Part shown: positions 7,168 through 16,823 of the stretch, piece by piece
Position numbering within the stretch: the first letter of the stretch is position 1
Layout of the letters: every line of letters starts with the position of its first letter
Source: an uncultured Candidatus Saccharibacteria bacterium
GTDB taxonomy: Bacteria; Patescibacteriota; Minisyncoccia; Phycocordibacterales; DATDWN01
Length of the DNA: 64,000 nucleotides
Direction: 5' to 3'
NCBI GenBank assembly: GCA_964608465.1
Contig: CAZSNI010000002.1
Location: 23,273-87,272, forward strand
Position numbers and translations under genes: made by a program
Notes under the pieces: generated by a model
What the model was told of the DNA's origin: nothing
Seen by the model: the letters and a program-made list of their open reading frames with translations, nothing else
Database searches by the model: none

Positions 7168-8715
7168 ATGAACATAACAAAAAATGTGAACACAAAAAAG
7201 GCAGTGATATATTGCAGAGTATCAACTAAAGAACAGGTAGATGAGGGTAATAGCTTAAGTACGCAAGAAAAAATATGTAAGGATTATTGTAGTCGTAACC
7301 AGTACGACATTGCGGAGATTTTCCGTGAACAAGGTGAGAGTGCAAAGACAGCAGATCGTACTGAACTTCAAAAACTCCTTACTTACTGTGCTGATAAAAA
7401 GAACGGGGTAAGAGCAGTTATTATTTATAAGCTGGACCGATTATCTCGCAATACTGATGATTACAGTCAACTACGCCTCCTATTGAAACGCTATGGGGTG
7501 GAGATAAAGTCTACATCAGAACACTTTGAGGATAATCCTGTTGGACGGTTTATGGAGAATACAATGGCTAACATTGCTCAGTTTGATAATGATATAAGAA
7601 GTGAGAGGTGTGCCGGCGGAATGAAAGATGCAATGAGAGACGGTAGATATGTTTGGATGGCTACAGTTGGCTATGACAATGTAAAGATTGGAGGAAAGGC
7701 AACTATCGCACAAAATCCAGTGATGGCTCCACTCATACTAGAAACTTTTGAACTCATTGCTAGAAATACATATCCAACTGAGGAGGTCCGTAGAATTATG
7801 ACCAAAAGAGGTTTGTTAAATAAAAAAGGTAAACCTTTTTCTAAAGGATACTTTTACAATATGCTTACAAACGAATTGTTTGCAGGTTGGATTGTAAAGT
7901 TTGGTGAGAGACATAAGGGCACATTTACACCAATTGTTTCGGAAGAACTATTTAATCAAGTTCAGAGAATACTCAAAAACAAAGGTAGAAAACATTCAGC
8001 ATATATTACAGATCACCCAGACTTTCCTTTGCGAAAGTTTGTAATAAACGCTTATGGAAAGAAATTGACTGGAAGCTGGTCCAAAGGAAGACAGAAAAGA
8101 TATCCGTTCTATCGTTTTGGAGGAAATCAATCAAACCACAATAGAGATAAGTTTGAGATGGAGTTTCAAGGCTTTATGGACCAATTTAGACTGGACGATA
8201 AGCACATTCAGAAACTAAAGAAGGCTGTGGAAGAACATCTAGTTATGGCTACAGCTGAACAACGAAAGCACGCAGAGCATTTAGAAAAATATATAAATCA
8301 ACTAACCGAAAAGCAATCAGCCATTATTAAGAAAAATCTTGATGGTGTCATTAGTGACACAGTTCTAAAACAACAACTTGAACTTATTGATAAGGAATTA
8401 ACTGAGGCAAACGCATCTTTGGCTAATCTACCTAAAACTGATACTGACTTTATGGAGATGCTTGGCTTTATGGAGAACTATCTAAAGAACCCTAGTCAGG
8501 TATGGAGAGAAGCACCAATAAACGTAAAAGTTAAGTTGCAATGGTTCCAATTTCCCCAAGGTTTGGTTTTTGAAAATGAGTTTTTTGGAACCACTGAAAT
8601 AGCTAGTATCTTCAAGACAAAAGACGCCTTTTCAGCGTCTTTGTCACCTAAGGTGGACCCGACAGGACTCGAACCTGCCACCCCATCATTGCAAATGATG
8701 TGCTCTACCAGATGA
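7168..8715 (+). CDS. Large serine recombinase (integrase), 515 aa
   Basis: N-terminal resolvase catalytic region AVIYCRVSTKEQ...LDRLSRN, plus a long C-terminal domain with a coiled-coil segment. The last ~20 codons are read from the complement of tRNA-Ala. Confidence 0.85.
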   Translation: MNITKNVNTKKAVIYCRVSTKEQVDEGNSLSTQEKICKDYCSRNQYDIAEIFREQGESAKTADRTELQKLLTYCADKKNGVRAVIIYKLDRLSRNTDDYSQLRLLLKRYGVEIKSTSEHFEDNPVGRFMENTMANIAQFDNDIRSERCAGGMKDAMRDGRYVWMATVGYDNVKIGGKATIAQNPVMAPLILETFELIARNTYPTEEVRRIMTKRGLLNKKGKPFSKGYFYNMLTNELFAGWIVKFGERHKGTFTPIVSEELFNQVQRILKNKGRKHSAYITDHPDFPLRKFVINAYGKKLTGSWSKGRQKRYPFYRFGGNQSNHNRDKFEMEFQGFMDQFRLDDKHIQKLKKAVEEHLVMATAEQRKHAEHLEKYINQLTEKQSAIIKKNLDGVISDTVLKQQLELIDKELTEANASLANLPKTDTDFMEMLGFMENYLKNPSQVWREAPINVKVKLQWFQFPQGLVFENEFFGTTEIASIFKTKDAFSASLSPKVDPTGLEPATPSLQMMCSTR

Positions 8716-8726
8716 GCTACGGGCCC
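8654..8726 (-). tRNA. tRNA-Ala (anticodon UGC), no encoded CCA
   Basis: Hand-folded cloverleaf of GGGCCCGTAGCTCATCTGGTAGAGCACATCATTTGCAATGATGGGGTGGCAGGTTCGAGTCCTGTCGGGTCCA. It has a 7-bp acceptor stem with the G3:U70 Ala identity pair, anticodon loop TTTGCAA and a GGTTCGAGTCC T-arm. Confidence 0.9.
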
Positions 8727-10010: not shown

Positions 10011-10076
10011 CAATAGACATAAACATTTTCCTTTTATAAACTAGTACGGGTTGTACACAAAACAGGAGTGAGTCGA

Positions 10077-10337
10077 ATGAACGATATCCCAGGAGAGAAG
10101 ACTCAGGGTGGTGAGGAAGCGGCACCACTTCAAGGTGAGAAGGTGGTGAGGCGTCTCCCGCAAGAGATGAATGGAGCCACAATCGAAACTATCGTCGAGA
10201 TAGTGGCGCGGAACACCCAACAATCCGTCACTTGGAGGGTCGTTGACGGTGAACCTACGGTTTTCACCACCGGCGACGTGTACGCTGTTCTGCGGGAGCT
10301 TCGGCACAAGCTTCCTCGCGAATATCGGCGAACATAG
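10077..10337 (+). CDS. GC-rich cassette A, ORF A1: hypothetical 86-aa protein
   Basis: ACAGGAG SD 8 nt before ATG 10077 (the ORF track starts at GTG 10068). G/C-ending codons contrast with the flanks. Confidence 0.55.
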   Translation: MNDIPGEKTQGGEEAAPLQGEKVVRRLPQEMNGATIETIVEIVARNTQQSVTWRVVDGEPTVFTTGDVYAVLRELRHKLPREYRRT

Positions 10338-10399
10338 ACGCTCCGACAATTTTTTCAGCCTCGATGCTACGTGCATCGGGGCTGTCGCTTTATAAACTA

Positions 10400-10427
10400 T
10401 TGACAGGAGAAATAATCGGTATATCAT
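10400..10427 (+). promoter_or_regulatory. Sigma70-type promoter of ORF A2
   Basis: TTGACA (10400-10405), 16 nt, TATCAT (10422-10427). Confidence 0.55.
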
Positions 10428-10457
10428 TTTTATGGGGTAACACAGGAGGGTAACGAT

Positions 10458-10700
10458 ATGTTTCGTGATGCGGATGTACGTCGTTCAGTCGCAAATGAGA
10501 TGTCAGTTCTCGCAATGCAGGGTCTTTCAACTTCGGATGCCGTTACTTTCGGCAACCGTAGTGCTCGACTCGCCATCGCAAGGACTGAAATCTGGAGTGG
10601 CGGAAGGGGTAACGGAACCCTGAACGTCGATCTCGACTGCACGGGGTGCATGCTCGTGAGTACGTGTCCTGGGGACAAATGTCCCCGTAAGGACTGCTAG
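10458..10700 (+). CDS. GC-rich cassette A, ORF A2: hypothetical 80-aa protein with Cys-rich C-terminus
   Basis: ACAGGAGGG SD 7 nt before the ATG. C-terminal sequence LDCTGCMLVSTCPGDKCPRKDC. Terminator follows. Confidence 0.55.
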   Translation: MFRDADVRRSVANEMSVLAMQGLSTSDAVTFGNRSARLAIARTEIWSGGRGNGTLNVDLDCTGCMLVSTCPGDKCPRKDC

Positions 10701-10719
10701 CTAGTCCGATTTTCGTTTT
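10691..10719 (+). terminator. Terminator of cassette A
   Basis: GGACT-GCTAGCT-AGTCC hairpin overlapping the A2 stop, then GATTTTCGTTTT. Confidence 0.55.
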
Positions 10720-10816
10720 CCGTGTTGGATGTTCCGTAAGTGTGATTAGGCGCGCTATCCCAGGCGTGCCTTCACTTTGCCCAAAATTTTTGCGAAAAAA
10801 CTTTTTTAAGAATAGA

Positions 10817-11331: not shown

Positions 11332-12168
11332 ATGAAAATTGTAAAAAAAGTTTTTCTTTCTCTGCTAGCAGTAATTATTTTGTTTGTTTTCTGGCAAGTT
11401 ACAAAAAAAGTTCCATTGGAGGGTGATTGGAAACAGCATTTAGATATTATTTCAAAGGCAGAGTTTAATGGCGACAAAGTAACAGTAAAGAATGTCAGAA
11501 ACTACCGCTATGGCCCTACAGAAGCAGATATGCATCCTGCATATTATGACAGAACTTATGACCTGAACGGCGTCAAAAAAATCTGGTACGTTACTGAACC
11601 TTTCAATGAGAATCAAATGGCGGCGCATACTTTTGTTTCATTTGAGTTTGATAATGGAGATTTTCTTGCGATAAGTATTGAAGCTAGAAAAACTAAATCT
11701 CAAGAATACAGTATTTGGAAAGGCGCAATGCGTACATATCCACTTGTGTATGTAGCTGCGGATGAAAGAGACGTCGTGCTTTTGCGCGCAAACCTCAGAA
11801 AAGACCAAGTGTATGTGTATCCTATAAAACTATCTAAACCAGAGAACGCTAGGTTGCTTTTGGTTGATATGCTCACCACTATGAACGAGCTAACAACAAC
11901 AAAACCACAATGGTATAACACTTTGTTTGCAAATTGTACTTCGGCAATTGCAAAACATGTAAATAAATTAAGTCCAGATAGAATTTCTAAGTTCTCATGG
12001 CAACTTTGGCTCACAGCATCTGCAGATGAACTTGCACTAAAGTCAGGGCTAATAGATACGGATTTGAGCATAGAAGAAGCAAGAAAGATGTATAATATAA
12101 ATGTTGCGTCTGAAAAAGCAGGGGATGTAGCCACATACTCGCAAGACATTAGAAAATTTAAAAAATAA
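11332..12168 (+). CDS. Membrane-anchored protein, DUF4105-like (278 aa)
   Basis: N-terminal TM segment and a KVTVKNVRNYRY motif reminiscent of DUF4105/Lnb N-terminal domain. Family call is tentative. Confidence 0.5.
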   Translation: MKIVKKVFLSLLAVIILFVFWQVTKKVPLEGDWKQHLDIISKAEFNGDKVTVKNVRNYRYGPTEADMHPAYYDRTYDLNGVKKIWYVTEPFNENQMAAHTFVSFEFDNGDFLAISIEARKTKSQEYSIWKGAMRTYPLVYVAADERDVVLLRANLRKDQVYVYPIKLSKPENARLLLVDMLTTMNELTTTKPQWYNTLFANCTSAIAKHVNKLSPDRISKFSWQLWLTASADELALKSGLIDTDLSIEEARKMYNINVASEKAGDVATYSQDIRKFKK

Positions 12169-12170
12169 AT

Positions 12171-12599
12171 ATGATCAACGAAAAAACAATGAAATTTATT
12201 AGAATATTTCTTTTAGTTCTAATAATTATCGGTATCGGTTTACTTTTAACTCAGAATACTTGGGTTCCAAAACTTACGAACTATATTTTAAAAGACGAGT
12301 TGTTGGCAAATAACACAAAGACTGGCTCACGATGGACTGGAAAAATTGATTCAGTAAAAACAGATTGCATATTCGACGGTATTTGTAGTGTGACTGTTTC
12401 TGGGGTTGAAGTTGTGGTTGTGCAAGGCATGGTTGCTTTGCAGGAGGGTGAAGAGGTGGGACAGTTGCGAGATGTTGAGTCAGTTTCCGATATGCAAAAG
12501 TATATAGGTAAAGAAGCAAATGTTTTTGCTAGAAAAATAAGTAGTAATTTATTCACACTTTACGGTAATCAAGAATTTTTCATAGAGCTGAAGAAGTAG
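12171..12599 (+). CDS. Hypothetical membrane-anchored protein (142 aa)
   Basis: ORF with an N-terminal TM segment; terminator follows. Confidence 0.55.
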   Translation: MINEKTMKFIRIFLLVLIIIGIGLLLTQNTWVPKLTNYILKDELLANNTKTGSRWTGKIDSVKTDCIFDGICSVTVSGVEVVVVQGMVALQEGEEVGQLRDVESVSDMQKYIGKEANVFARKISSNLFTLYGNQEFFIELKK

Positions 12600-12613
12600 C
12601 CACAATATATATT

Positions 12614-12644
12614 TTTAAAAATAGACAGAAATGTCTATTTTTTA
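12614..12644. terminator. Bidirectional terminator
   Basis: AAAAA-ATAGACA-GAAA-TGTCTAT-TTTTTT. Confidence 0.7.
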
Positions 12645-12647
12645 AAC

Positions 12648-12677
12648 TTGACTTTTTCATTCTATATGTGATATAAT
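12648..12677 (+). promoter_or_regulatory. Promoter of cassette B with extended -10
   Basis: TTGACT (12648-12653), 18 nt, TGATATAAT (TGn + TATAAT at 12672-12677). Confidence 0.6.
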
Positions 12678-12683
12678 TCGCGC

Positions 12684-12842
12684 AGTAAGGAACATTGAAA
12701 ACACATATCGGAACCTCCAATCCTCCATACAGGTCAGCAGTTGCTGGCACAGATGGAGGAGGGGGGCAATCTGATGTTAAGCAACATTGGACTGATTCTT
12801 GTCAGAATCAGCTAATAAAAAACCCACCTCTAAACCAAAGGT
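12684..12842 (+). promoter_or_regulatory. Structured ~160-nt leader of cassette B with SD-sequestering hairpin and 13-codon uORF
   Basis: CCTCCAT (12722-12728) pairs with ATGGAGG (12753-12759), part of GGAGGAGGGGGG. uORF ATG 12774 to TAA 12815 encodes MLSNIGLILVRIS. Hairpin CTGATTCT-TGTC-AGAATCAG lies inside the uORF. Confidence 0.4.
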
Positions 12843-13022
12843 ATGAAAATACTTCGAGTCATCGGGTTAGGGATGCTTATCATCACATTGAAGTTCCTGA
12901 CCCCAAAGATTTTCTCTGGGATCGAGAATACCCTTCTGGTGTTCTTTGATTCCATGCAGACTGTGCTAGAAAGAACAAGCACGTCGCAAACTGCCGGATT
13001 CTTCCCTGGACTCCCGCAGTAA
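12843..13022 (+). CDS. GC-elevated cassette B ORF: 59-aa small membrane protein
   Basis: Own translation: MKILRVIGLGMLIITLKFLTPKIFSGIENTLLVFFDSMQTVLERTSTSQTAGFFPGLPQ. One codon below the ORF-track cutoff. SD is weak (AAAGG). Terminator lies 9 nt downstream. Confidence 0.4.
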   Translation: MKILRVIGLGMLIITLKFLTPKIFSGIENTLLVFFDSMQTVLERTSTSQTAGFFPGLPQ

Positions 13023-13030
13023 CCCAAAGC

Positions 13031-13068
13031 AACCGGACGCTCATGCGTTCGGTTATTTGTTTGTCTTT
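13031..13068 (+). terminator. Terminator of cassette B
   Basis: AACCGGACGC-TCAT-GCGTTCGGTT followed by ATTTGTTTGTCTTT. Confidence 0.65.
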
Positions 13069-13187
13069 GTAAGGCATTTTGTTCTAAATCGTCTATATAA
13101 TGTAAGCCAAAGTGTGTGGATAATATTCCCTAAATGGACTTTTGGTTGTATAATTTTAAGGTAGAAATTACAAATTAAAAATCAAAA

Positions 13188-14069
13188 ATGAAAAAAATAT
13201 TACTAATGAGTTTTTTGGGTGTTTTATTCTTTAACACCGCTTCTGCACATGCGACTATTTTAGTTGAAGTGCCATCTACTTTTGTTTTAAAAGTTGGTGA
13301 GGGTGCTGGGGTTAAGAATTATCAAAACATGGAGATTGATTTTCAATCTATACAAAATGATGACAGTGAATGTAAAAAAGGCACAACACCATGTCCACTA
13401 GGAAATCCAGTAAACACATCAAACCCTAGAAAGGAGGTTGTACTTTATGTAACTACTCCGGGTGGTTGTGGACCTGACGCTGATTCTAGGTGTTTAGGTG
13501 CTCCAGGGTTTGCAAATACATTTACTATCAATGAAGGAGATAGTGAAGATGTTCTTGGGATTGAGATCTTTGTATCAAATGTAACAGACAACTCTGCAAC
13601 ATTTAGAATCGCAATGAAAACAAATGACTCAGATGATGATTCAGATGATAAAGTTATCAAGCCTATGCCTCCAGTGATAAAAGTCACTTCAGTTACTGGT
13701 GCACAAGGCACTATAAACCGTGTGGATAAAATTATCATTTGCCCAAACGGTGAAAGTGATGACAACTGTTCAGTTTGTTCAAAGGGTGAGTGTAAGCCAG
13801 AGACAACACCTGCTAGTCCACGAAAACTAGGTGAGCCAGTTAGCGTCACAAATCCTCCAGTTTTTGAACTTAAGGGCGACGAGACGCTTGTTTCAGCTGT
13901 TAAAGTGGAAGGAAATGCCAGTTCTACTGCTGGATATGAAATAAAAGCTAAAAGAAAAGCTAGACTACTGTTTTTGTTCCCAGTTAATCCAGAAATAAAA
14001 TATTCTGTAAATGCTAGTGGAACAGCGTCTGTATCGGCAAGACCTTGGTGGAACTTTCTAGCGTGGTAA
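13188..14069 (+). CDS. Secreted hypothetical protein (293 aa)
   Basis: Signal peptide MKKILLMSFLGVLFFNTASAHA, a Cys-containing mature part and a DSDDDSDD acidic linker. Confidence 0.6.
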   Translation: MKKILLMSFLGVLFFNTASAHATILVEVPSTFVLKVGEGAGVKNYQNMEIDFQSIQNDDSECKKGTTPCPLGNPVNTSNPRKEVVLYVTTPGGCGPDADSRCLGAPGFANTFTINEGDSEDVLGIEIFVSNVTDNSATFRIAMKTNDSDDDSDDKVIKPMPPVIKVTSVTGAQGTINRVDKIIICPNGESDDNCSVCSKGECKPETTPASPRKLGEPVSVTNPPVFELKGDETLVSAVKVEGNASSTAGYEIKAKRKARLLFLFPVNPEIKYSVNASGTASVSARPWWNFLAW

Positions 14070-15956: not shown

Positions 15957-16823
15957 ATGAAGATGTCCAGTTTCGTCATTGCGTTGGCCATGTTGGCTAC
16001 CGCAAGCGCCGCAAGCGCACAGTCGTCCGCGAAGATCGGTGACCTGGTTTCCGGAGTTCCGGTCGCTGGCGACCTCGTCGTCTGCAACTGGAACGGAAGC
16101 AACGTCGACGCCGACTACAAGATCGACAAGGCGGGTTCGCCCACCGTGTCGCTCCTCGTTTCGCCCAACACGTGCAAGAAGGCGGGCGAAGCTCCGACGC
16201 TCACGTTCGTCACCTTCACGGTGCAGAACATCGCGGCCGGACGGCAGGGGATGAGTCACCTCGCAACTGGCAACGGCCAGACGCAGGTCAACTTCCCCGG
16301 AAACGCTGTCTCGCTCACGATGAACTGCGCCAATGGCTTTCGGGTCATGGCGTCACACACCGTCACCGCGCTGACTGGTCCCGCCGGTCCGGCCGGCCCC
16401 CAGGGTCCGGCAGGTCCGACAGGCGCAACAGGTGCCACCGGTGCCACTGGCGCGAAAGGCGACCCGGGTGACGTTCTGACCTGGCCGACCATGGCTCCCG
16501 CATCCGTCGATTTGGGACTCCCGATGGTTCTTCCGAAGCCCTTGTCCCTGACCATTCCGAGACCGGAGGGCGTGCATGATCTGCTCTACTACTGGTCGCA
16601 GTACAGGGTGGCGATTCGTTGGAGCTTCAACCTCGATGGGTCAGTCAAGTGTCGACAGGTGGACTGGAGTTTTCATCCGGAACACGCCTTCGACACTCTC
16701 CAGGCCCTCACCATCGGTGTTCAGTGGTGGGACTCGAGTTCGGCGAAGGGTGGTCCCTGGCCGATTGCATGGAACGTCAACATTCCGTGCAACACTTCAC
16801 TCCTGACGCCAGGCAAGTACTAG
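15957..16823 (+). CDS. GC-rich cassette C ORF: secreted protein with collagen-like Gly-X-Y tract (288 aa)
   Basis: Signal peptide MKMSSFVIALAMLATASAASAQ. GPAGPAGPQGPAGPTGATGATGATGAKGDPGD is encoded at 16377-16472. GGAG lies 7 nt before the ATG. Hand count gives 39/60 GC at 16021-16080. Confidence 0.75.
   Translation: MKMSSFVIALAMLATASAASAQSSAKIGDLVSGVPVAGDLVVCNWNGSNVDADYKIDKAGSPTVSLLVSPNTCKKAGEAPTLTFVTFTVQNIAAGRQGMSHLATGNGQTQVNFPGNAVSLTMNCANGFRVMASHTVTALTGPAGPAGPQGPAGPTGATGATGATGAKGDPGDVLTWPTMAPASVDLGLPMVLPKPLSLTIPRPEGVHDLLYYWSQYRVAIRWSFNLDGSVKCRQVDWSFHPEHAFDTLQALTIGVQWWDSSSAKGGPWPIAWNVNIPCNTSLLTPGKY

Follow-up and report, generated by a model that had tools for sequence, protein, structure and literature searches.

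The messenger RNAs (mRNAs) of several type I toxins have functional folding pathways, as described for aapA1/IsoA1 of H. pylori, for hok/Sok and for timP/timR (PMC6733600, PMC5416894, PMC9841398, PMC13000454), and an antisense RNA antitoxin that overlaps or adjoins the toxin gene and has its own promoter is part of the definition of such systems (PMC8594479). Here we analyse a locus in a 64-kb stretch of DNA (64,000 nucleotides, hereafter the window) of contig CAZSNI010000002.1, deposited under the name of an uncultured Candidatus Saccharibacteria bacterium, in which a structured leader of about 160 nucleotides (nt) precedes an open reading frame (ORF) of 59 codons. In a preliminary description, its layout had been likened to that of a type I toxin locus. 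The mRNAs of aapA1, hok and timP resemble it insofar as they are monocistronic and highly structured and encode a small hydrophobic peptide, and insofar as they combine long-distance intramolecular pairing with early local hairpins that are later replaced. In type I toxin mRNAs, however, the pairing sequesters the Shine-Dalgarno (SD) sequence, an antisense antitoxin is found in the locus and the message is activated by processing, whereas the locus studied here has no SD near its AUG and no conserved antisense promoter. Moreover, its leader pairs with codons 11-19, while type I toxin mRNAs pair their 5' end with their 3' end, and unlike type I toxin genes it is a single-copy, widely conserved chromosomal gene. 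We class the locus as a cis-acting mRNA structure with alternative folds; none of the Rfam, Pfam and literature libraries that were searched contains a match to it.

Other described systems invite comparison as well. The maturation (A-protein) gene of the RNA phage MS2 is under kinetic control by a long-distance interaction that closes its ribosome-binding site. As in MS2, an upstream segment of our leader finds its partner far downstream, the proposal being that the message is open during its synthesis only, and the order of folding would matter. In MS2, however, the pairing closes the ribosome-binding site of a phage gene, whereas here it covers +33 to +55 of a cellular gene and the predicted accessibility of the start is not reduced. 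In RNA thermometers that sequester the SD (fourU, ROSE) and in anti-SD hairpins, the SD is located at a distance of 5-10 nt from the start codon under control. Hairpin P1 of our leader is similar to these in that a pyrimidine/U-rich strand is paired to a GGAGG-like strand with several G-U wobbles, and dissimilar in that its G-run lies 76 nt from the AUG, with no start codon after it in the homologues, in a genome that uses SD sequences at chance level. Finally, the locus shares with the cis-regulatory leaders and riboswitches of Rfam a covarying 5' untranslated structure directly upstream of one gene family, but it matches none of the families in Rfam 15 and part of its structure lies inside the coding sequence.

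The genomes of the Patescibacteria, or candidate phyla radiation (CPR), are tiny; few regulators are known from them, and hardly any of their regulatory RNAs have been characterised. Our literature searches returned nothing on type I toxins or on SD and leaderless usage in CPR, and a search on riboswitches and structured RNAs returned no mention of Parcubacteria. Against this background the structured leader of the locus is well supported, and sequence comparison speaks with unusual clarity for two alternative folds and for an RNA structure superimposed on codons; the analysis also corrects a toxin call that was attractive but unsupported.

Results

Covariation in the leader

The leader is conserved, and its full architecture recurs in 28 aligned full-length homologues (individual loci carry L numbers below). 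From an extended -10 promoter the order runs through a 5' motif of the form GUARG..AC-N-UUGAAA, the sequence GGAAC, hairpins P1, P2 and P3, a pyrimidine-rich C-element and an A/U-rich stretch of 12-20 nt to the AUG, the ORF and a terminator (Table 1). In the window, P1 is formed by CCUCCAAUCCUCCAU (12715-12728) and AUGGAGGAGGGGGG (12753-12766) around a small apical stem; in the homologues CCUCUUUUCUUC pairs with GAAGAGGGGGG, and the apical stem is variable. The duplex of P1 measures at least 20 base pairs (bp) and, with P1a included, is nearly perfect over a long stretch; P1 retains a run of four conserved U-G wobble pairs. These helices are 93% paired in the 28 sequences (MAFFT alignment A6), with 8 pairs changed on both sides, and in a set of 53 sequences P1 is 91% paired with compensatory changes at 16 of its 20 pairs. 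P2, for which the region has the consensus CAGYCUGRUAAUUAGYCAG, is 87% paired and compensatory at 3 of 5 pairs, and at all five in the 53 sequences; the shifted register of P2 in the window was read from the sequence by hand. The stem of P3 is variable, and its loop follows YNGUCN, with GUC in nearly all homologues. Over the three hairpins jointly, the paired fraction of cells in the 53 sequences is 90.9%, and it drops to 51-55% once the partners are slid; changes on both sides affect 435 cells, as compared with 75-121 in the slid controls. The preliminary description had drawn two hairpins here, one between a CCTCCAT-type strand and ATGGAGG and one of 8 bp; both exist, as P1 and P3, and both are conserved well beyond chance.

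A covariance model built on the leader (R1) finds one site in the window, at 12707-12848 with 80 bits. Of 50 metagenome loci that had been fetched through the protein alone, 45 also have a match to it immediately before the ATG. By these comparisons the leader is of the generic cis-regulatory kind, a structured mRNA element conserved by compensatory changes and tied in position to one gene family.

A search against Rfam 15 gave no match in the region at the gathering score or at E up to 10, the only match in the window being a tRNA-Ala. The best score between 12400 and 13300 was that of patAB, with 26 bits against a gathering score of 92, over the AT-rich promoter and terminator region. As evidence that would speak against its own reading, the preliminary description had named a structure conserved without either small ORF, and a hit to a known RNA family. 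The outcome is divided: the structure is indeed conserved without the short upstream ORF (uORF) of that description, whereas the 59-codon ORF is conserved as well and no Rfam model matches. In five metagenome loci, L049/L050, L061/L062 and L066, a family member is encoded and the upstream region has no R1 match, the leader there being divergent or lost.

Some further pairings were considered and rejected. The C-element resembles the 5' strand of P1, and the G-run and the C-element, as an alternative to P1, are 91% pairable; however, the slid control reaches 92%, so that nothing beyond composition speaks for this pairing. A triplex in which the C-element would lie on P1 as a parallel pyrimidine strand agrees, on inspection, with L061 and with the consensus, but not with L026, L027, L029 and L052. 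A helix between positions -25 to -8 and codons 4-10, with the AUG in its apical loop (P4), occurs in most single-sequence folds; its register shifts between sequences, and its fixed-column support, at 50-73%, is weak.

The coding sequence as a pairing partner

When full transcripts are folded jointly, the RNAalifold consensus pairs GGAAC with GUUCC in the ORF, and nucleotides after P1 with codons 12-16. GUUCC consists of the G of the K17 codon, the F18 codon and the C of the L19 codon. This closing helix is 98.6% paired in the 28 sequences, and G-C pairs are compensated to A-U in L029 (AAAAC with GUUUU) and partly in L031. The long-range helix proper (LR) is 85% paired in fixed columns of the MAFFT alignment, with compensatory changes at 8 of 13 pairs. 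When a single register is imposed on the 53 sequences, 69.5% pairing is obtained; with permuted ORFs the value falls to 62.6 +/- 1.2% and does not exceed 65.7%. The LR duplex has a mean energy of -14.8 kcal/mol with the cognate ORF, as compared with -9.5 for non-cognate and -7.4 for shuffled ORFs. Distant members of the family have divergent leader strands, such as GUUGGAUUACCGAC, CUUGCACAUAGCAAGCG and CAGAUCAAAAUUAUUGAUC, which in many cases are complementary to their own codons 9-16. When transcripts are folded without constraints, LR is part of the minimum-energy structure in 21-22 out of 25, and in the window all 14 of its pairs are canonical. From P1, LR and the closing helix a three-way junction is predicted, within which lie P3, the C-element, the AUG and roughly the first 10 codons.

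Codon choice in the family indicates an RNA constraint that overlaps the coding function, since synonymous sites are frozen exactly where the ORF pairs. In the LR and closing region, K17 is AAG in 22 of 22 and F18 is TTC in 25 of 27 sequences. The same holds for codons 26-37, which form a hairpin within the ORF: E28 is GAG (25/27), L31 is CTC (23/27), V33 is GTG (21/21), F34 is TTC (26/26) and F35 is TTT (26/27), and N29 is frozen as well. The synonymous codons of F24, in contrast, are split 11 to 16. The hairpin in the ORF has a mean z-score of -2.1 over 68 homologues; the base of its stem differs between relatives with pairing retained, and its loop, CCUUCUG in the window, reads CCUCCUC in the majority of relatives.

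Two predicted folds and their order

P2 and LR use the same 5' nucleotides and are mutually exclusive, and each of them covaries at its own columns. Because the two helices share nucleotides and both have been kept by compensatory changes, selection appears to maintain two alternative folds. When the 25 transcripts were folded at increasing lengths, P2 was predicted in 16 of them with the RNA ending at the AUG, while LR was predicted in none before +30, in 15 at +45 and in 24 at +60. Such a succession of P2 and then LR is what one would expect to see of a designed refolding pathway.

Signals for translation initiation

The sequence that had been taken for a very strong SD is the 3' strand of P1. 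Its G-run ends 76 nt before the AUG of the ORF, and in the homologues no start codon follows it. We found no SD before the AUG in any homologue inspected, and among the window genes only 5 of 48 have an SD-like motif, which puts SD use at chance level. On these grounds the proposed sequestration of an SD by the leader is unsupported; the G-rich strand is a structural element and not a ribosome-binding site. Many window genes have a TATAAT-type box 6-10 nt before their ATG (e.g. at 11332, 14914 on the minus strand, 24526, 33033 and 45802), which suggests that the mRNAs of this genome are predominantly leaderless. Since most genes lack an SD and many look leaderless, a structured leader of 160 nt is exceptional in this genome.

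The proposed uORF of 13 codons fares no better. An exact look-up returned L001, a contig identical to ours, as the sole match. The ATG of the uORF stems from a substitution in the conserved P2 loop (UAAUUAG to UGUUAAG). Even L044, L004 and L009, which are the closest relatives, lack this ATG, as do the other homologues inspected. There is no overlap with the 59-codon ORF, from which the uORF is separated by a gap of 27 nt. It is an accident of this strain and probably has no function, and a coupling of leader and ORF of the hok/mok type is unsupported because the uORF is confined to this strain.

The encoded protein

The 59-codon ORF, in contrast to the uORF, is conserved and protein-coding. 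Among 5.8 billion protein clusters its product has 12 homologues of 48-73 amino acids (aa) with 57-92% identity, one of them annotated from a metagenome-assembled genome of Candidatus Paceibacterota. Pattern searches added 23 loci in GTDB species representatives (Zambryskibacteria, Paceibacteria, "Parcubacteria group" and several labelled Saccharibacteria) and 50 metagenome loci, 38 of them distinct. In about 80 fetched loci the frame, the start and the length (56-64 codons) are maintained. A family profile matches 175 proteins at E up to 1e-3 among 1.84 billion cluster representatives, all of them 46-140 aa long; the longer matches align by their C-terminal part alone on inspection of the match coordinates, which suggests that their starts have been mis-called. 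The locus also flags a small protein that is often missed or mis-started by standard annotation.

Conserved motifs are MKILRV..G.G, K-F-L-x-P-K-I-F-x-G-x-E-N-T-L-L-V-F-F and Q39, with K-F-L-x-P ... E-x-T-L-L-x-F-F as the conserved core. The C-terminus is variable, with indels in frame. The median ratio of nonsynonymous to synonymous substitution rates (dN/dS) is 0.19 over 313 pairs, and conserved residues make use of many synonymous codons (all four at G8, G26 and G54, five at L19, six at L42, and three or four at P21 and P61). Protein-like conservation, in-frame indels at the C-terminus, the low dN/dS and the restriction of the 175 profile matches to small proteins all argue that the ORF encodes a real protein under purifying selection across a wide clade.

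The protein of the window has no sequence match in Pfam, NCBIfam, PADLOC or PDB, and matches of other family members to these libraries are scattered and all at E above 0.006. Among 41 members, a single one matches the Pfam family of TisB, with an E of 0.067, and we regard this match as noise. A likeness to the hinge of TatA (F-G-P-K-K-L-P as compared with F-L-T-P-K-I-F) was dropped, as there was no Pfam TatA match at E up to 1. AlphaFold predicts a single long helix over residues 2-48 with a mean pLDDT of 79, a model that is uninformative on function. By these comparisons, the small membrane protein represents a conserved, unannotated patescibacterial family.

Transcription unit and surroundings

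The promoter that had been described is indeed present, and it is the sole strong promoter-like site within 12000-13600. Transcription probably starts near 12684-12685. Out of 25 homologous loci, 19 have a promoter of the same type between -147 and -182 relative to the ATG according to a promoter scan, and on inspection no conserved -10 box lies 6-10 nt before the ATG that could serve a leaderless transcript from an internal promoter. The terminator claimed downstream of the ORF is present too, and in most homologues a hairpin and a T-run follow the stop codon. The rise in GC that had been reported for the leader is confirmed but modest. The transcript of 389 nt has a predicted energy of -142.6 kcal/mol, against -101.4 +/- 5.4 for dinucleotide shuffles (z = -7.6), and is thus far more stable than expected. 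The data show a monocistronic gene with its own promoter and terminator, in a patescibacterial genome of the Paceibacteria/Parcubacteria type.

An antisense promoter was looked for in two ways. No conserved minus-strand promoter was found within -300 to +400 in the 25 loci, by the same scan that had placed the plus-strand promoter, and the only minus-strand signal to recur, in 4 loci, was a weak TGTGATAAT that owes its presence to a Thr codon. In the window, a scan of 12000-13600 showed no antisense promoter within the transcript. Upstream of the unit there is no room for a divergent small RNA, because the gap of about 50 nt to the upstream gene is filled by the terminator of that gene. The gene is single-copy in the window, and in 16 loci yceG (mltG) is close by on the opposite strand, the YceG proteins being 58-100% identical. 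The family is absent from the phage, plasmid and IMG/VR viral collections searched, and when the 142-aa protein encoded upstream was used to look for synteny among GTDB genomes, no relatives came up. Between the terminator and the next gene at 13188 there are two more -10-like boxes (tcgtctatataatg and ggttgtataatttt, within 13085-13160), the first of which (tcgtctatataatg) is kept in the close relatives L004 and L009.

Table 1. Elements of the transcription unit, in order of their start in the window
Feature	Positions	Strand	Remarks
Promoter: TTGACT, 18-nt spacer, TG-extended TATAAT	12648-12677	+	Scores 11/12 plus TG
5'-terminal motif GUAAGGAACAUUGAAAAC, consensus GUARG..AC-N-UUGAWA	12685-12702	+	Conserved
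GGAAC, 5' strand of the closing helix	12710-12714	+	Pairs with GUUCC at 12893-12897
Hairpin P1	12715-12766	+	Pyrimidine strand 12715-12728; apical stem-loop about 12732-12748; G-rich strand 12753-12766
Leader strand of LR, CAAUCUGAUGUUAAGCA	12767-12783	+	17 nt after P1; pairs with ORF nt 33-48
Local hairpin P2	12773-12788	+	GAUGUU-AAGC-AACAUU in the window; CUGG-UAAUUAG-CCAG in most relatives
13-codon uORF (MLSNIGLILVRIS)	12774-12815	+	Window and identical contig L001 only
P3, 8-bp hairpin CUGAUUCU-UGUC-AGAAUCAG	12792-12811	+	9/9 pairs compensatory, 90.5% paired (53 sequences)
Pyrimidine C-element CCCACCUCU, consensus CUUCUCUC	12823-12831	+	12-20 nt before the AUG; conserved
ORF of 59 codons, small protein with hydrophobic N-terminal segment (MKILRVIGLGMLIITLKFLTPKIFSGIENTLLVFFDSMQ...)	12843-13022	+	Homologues, family profile, dN/dS
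ORF strand of LR and closing helix	12875-12897	+	nt 33-48 (codons 11-16); GUUCC nt 51-55 (codons 17-19)
Hairpin in the ORF, codons 26-37, GGGAUCGAGAAUAC / GUGUUCUUUGAUUCC	12918-12953	+	z = -5.9 in the window
Intrinsic terminator, 10-bp stem with 6 G-C pairs (13031-13054), then T-run	13031-13064	+	8 nt past the stop codon

Discussion

We propose that refolding of the mRNA gates the expression of a conserved small membrane protein, which is in our view the likeliest reading and somewhat more probable than not. According to this proposal P1, P2 and P3 would form first during transcription. The emerging codons 11-19 would then invade P2, with its loop as a toehold, and would lock the 5' part of the message in a closed fold. 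The closed fold may limit or time the expression of the small protein, such that translation would be restricted to the nascent or open form; alternatively, it may control the access of a ribonuclease or a helicase. It is from the refolding pattern that we infer the gating of protein expression. In a wider form the proposal would describe an RNA switch across the Patescibacteria, in which the leader and the first 19 codons adopt two exclusive covarying folds and gate expression in bacteria that have no SD-based initiation and whose mRNAs are mostly leaderless, the protein being an unnamed component of the envelope; we advance this wider form tentatively, as plausible but falling just short of probable. 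If it is true, the locus would be a tractable model for post-transcriptional control in organisms without SD-dependent initiation.

The proposal should be interpreted with some caution, since several results weigh against it. In the window itself, the length series shows P2 in no predicted fold at any length, and LR at +60 and +120 but not at full length. The predicted full-length fold thus lacks the LR helix, the fold with LR (-140.9 kcal/mol) and the alternative (-141.5 kcal/mol) being near isoenergetic, 0.6 apart. Predicted accessibility from -12 to +12 around the AUG is 0.44, as compared with 0.50 +/- 0.14 in 47 control genes, and LR, at +33 to +55, lies outside the normal initiation footprint. 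Some conserved elements also have no place in the scheme: the 5' motif has no consistent pairing partner, no partner is assigned to the conserved GUC loop of P3, and neither candidate partner of the C-element (codons 6-10, as in P4, or the G-run) can be separated from controls. Moreover, the alignment of the 53 sequences (A9) was fitted to the covariance model, which favours structure; the unfitted MAFFT alignment A6 gives the same picture of covariation as the fitted one. Occlusion of the start codon by the fold is not supported, the AUG being predicted to be no less accessible than in control genes. Because accessibility is not reduced and LR lies beyond the initiation footprint, control of decay or processing and a switch that depends on a factor are live alternatives to a direct effect on initiation.

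Control of mRNA lifetime or processing would make P1 or LR a site for RNase III, or the closed 5' domain a protection against decay that depends on the 5' end. The near-perfect duplex of P1 and P1a, the extreme structure of the transcript as a whole and the unreduced accessibility of the start site are all consistent with such a role. It leaves unexplained, however, why a competing P2 should be conserved by covariation and why the partner strand should be located inside the ORF, and we regard it as unlikely. A similarly low likelihood attaches to a leader that acts as a sensor, that is, a riboswitch or an element bound by a protein or RNA, in which a ligand or factor, bound at the three-way junction, at the 5' motif or in the GUC loop of P3, would shift the balance between P2 and LR and thereby switch the gene on or off. 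Two mutually exclusive helices that both covary speak for a sensor, as do several conserved elements that are unpaired and to which no partner is assigned (the 5' motif, the C-element and the GUC loop) and the tandem U-G wobble pairs of P1. Yet Rfam yields no matching family, not even with E allowed to reach 10, no junction resembling a ligand pocket with invariant purines is evident, the regulated gene has no family annotation and gives no hint of a ligand, and pairing with the ORF already accounts for most of the conserved "loop" nucleotides.

A type I toxin-antitoxin system, with a 59-aa membrane toxin, a folded mRNA that is inert until processed and an unrecognised antisense RNA as antitoxin, is decidedly unlikely in our judgement. 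Part of the layout does resemble such a system: the unit is monocistronic with a strong promoter and a terminator, the product of 59 aa has a hydrophobic N-terminal segment and a predicted helix and is in the range of size (usually below 60 aa) and hydrophobicity of such toxins, and a structured mRNA combines pairing over a long distance between leader and coding region with an early local hairpin, as in the aapA1, hok and timP mRNAs. Coupling through a uORF, sequestration of an SD and the toxin label itself are not supported. There is no SD to sequester, no conserved minus-strand promoter in the 25 loci (an antitoxin encoded in trans at a distance is still conceivable) and no space upstream for a divergent small RNA. 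A single-copy gene with yceG as its neighbour in 16 loci, a wide family under purifying selection with a specific conserved motif, and its absence from the mobile-element collections searched are all at odds with a toxin, and the sole TisB match is noise. Finally, the transcript might be a non-coding structured RNA in which the 59-codon frame is incidental. The z-score of the whole transcript would agree with this, other frames across the region are also open, and RNA pairing accounts for part of the nucleotide conservation of the ORF. But about 80 loci agree in frame, start and range of length, indels at the C-terminus preserve the frame and synonymous changes dominate at conserved residues with a median dN/dS of 0.19, by which this explanation is effectively refuted.

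Additional observations

Elsewhere in the window, a GC-rich island at 10040-10740 (45-57% GC, as compared with about 35% in the genome) holds two small ORFs, of 86 aa at 10077-10337 and of 80 aa at 10458-10700, neither with a Pfam match. Both have an SD-like AGGAG or GGAGG in front of them, an unusual feature in this genome, and the second has a promoter-like site, TTGACA...TATATCAT; the island may be foreign DNA. An ORF of 288 aa at 15957-16823 has 65% GC, an N-terminus resembling a signal peptide and an SD-like motif, and contains a collagen-like GPAGPAGPQGPAGPTGATGATGATGAKGDPG repeat (Pfam Collagen, E = 3e-5); it looks horizontally acquired. The tRNA-Ala(TGC) at 8652-8726 on the minus strand overlaps the 3' end of the ORF listed at 7168-8715 on the other strand, so that the end of that ORF, or its reality, is doubtful. 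Lastly, many of the GTDB representatives that carry the gene (L009-L031) are titled "uncultured Candidatus Saccharibacteria bacterium", a label that looks generic or wrong because of their synteny with Zambryskibacteria and Paceibacterota contigs.

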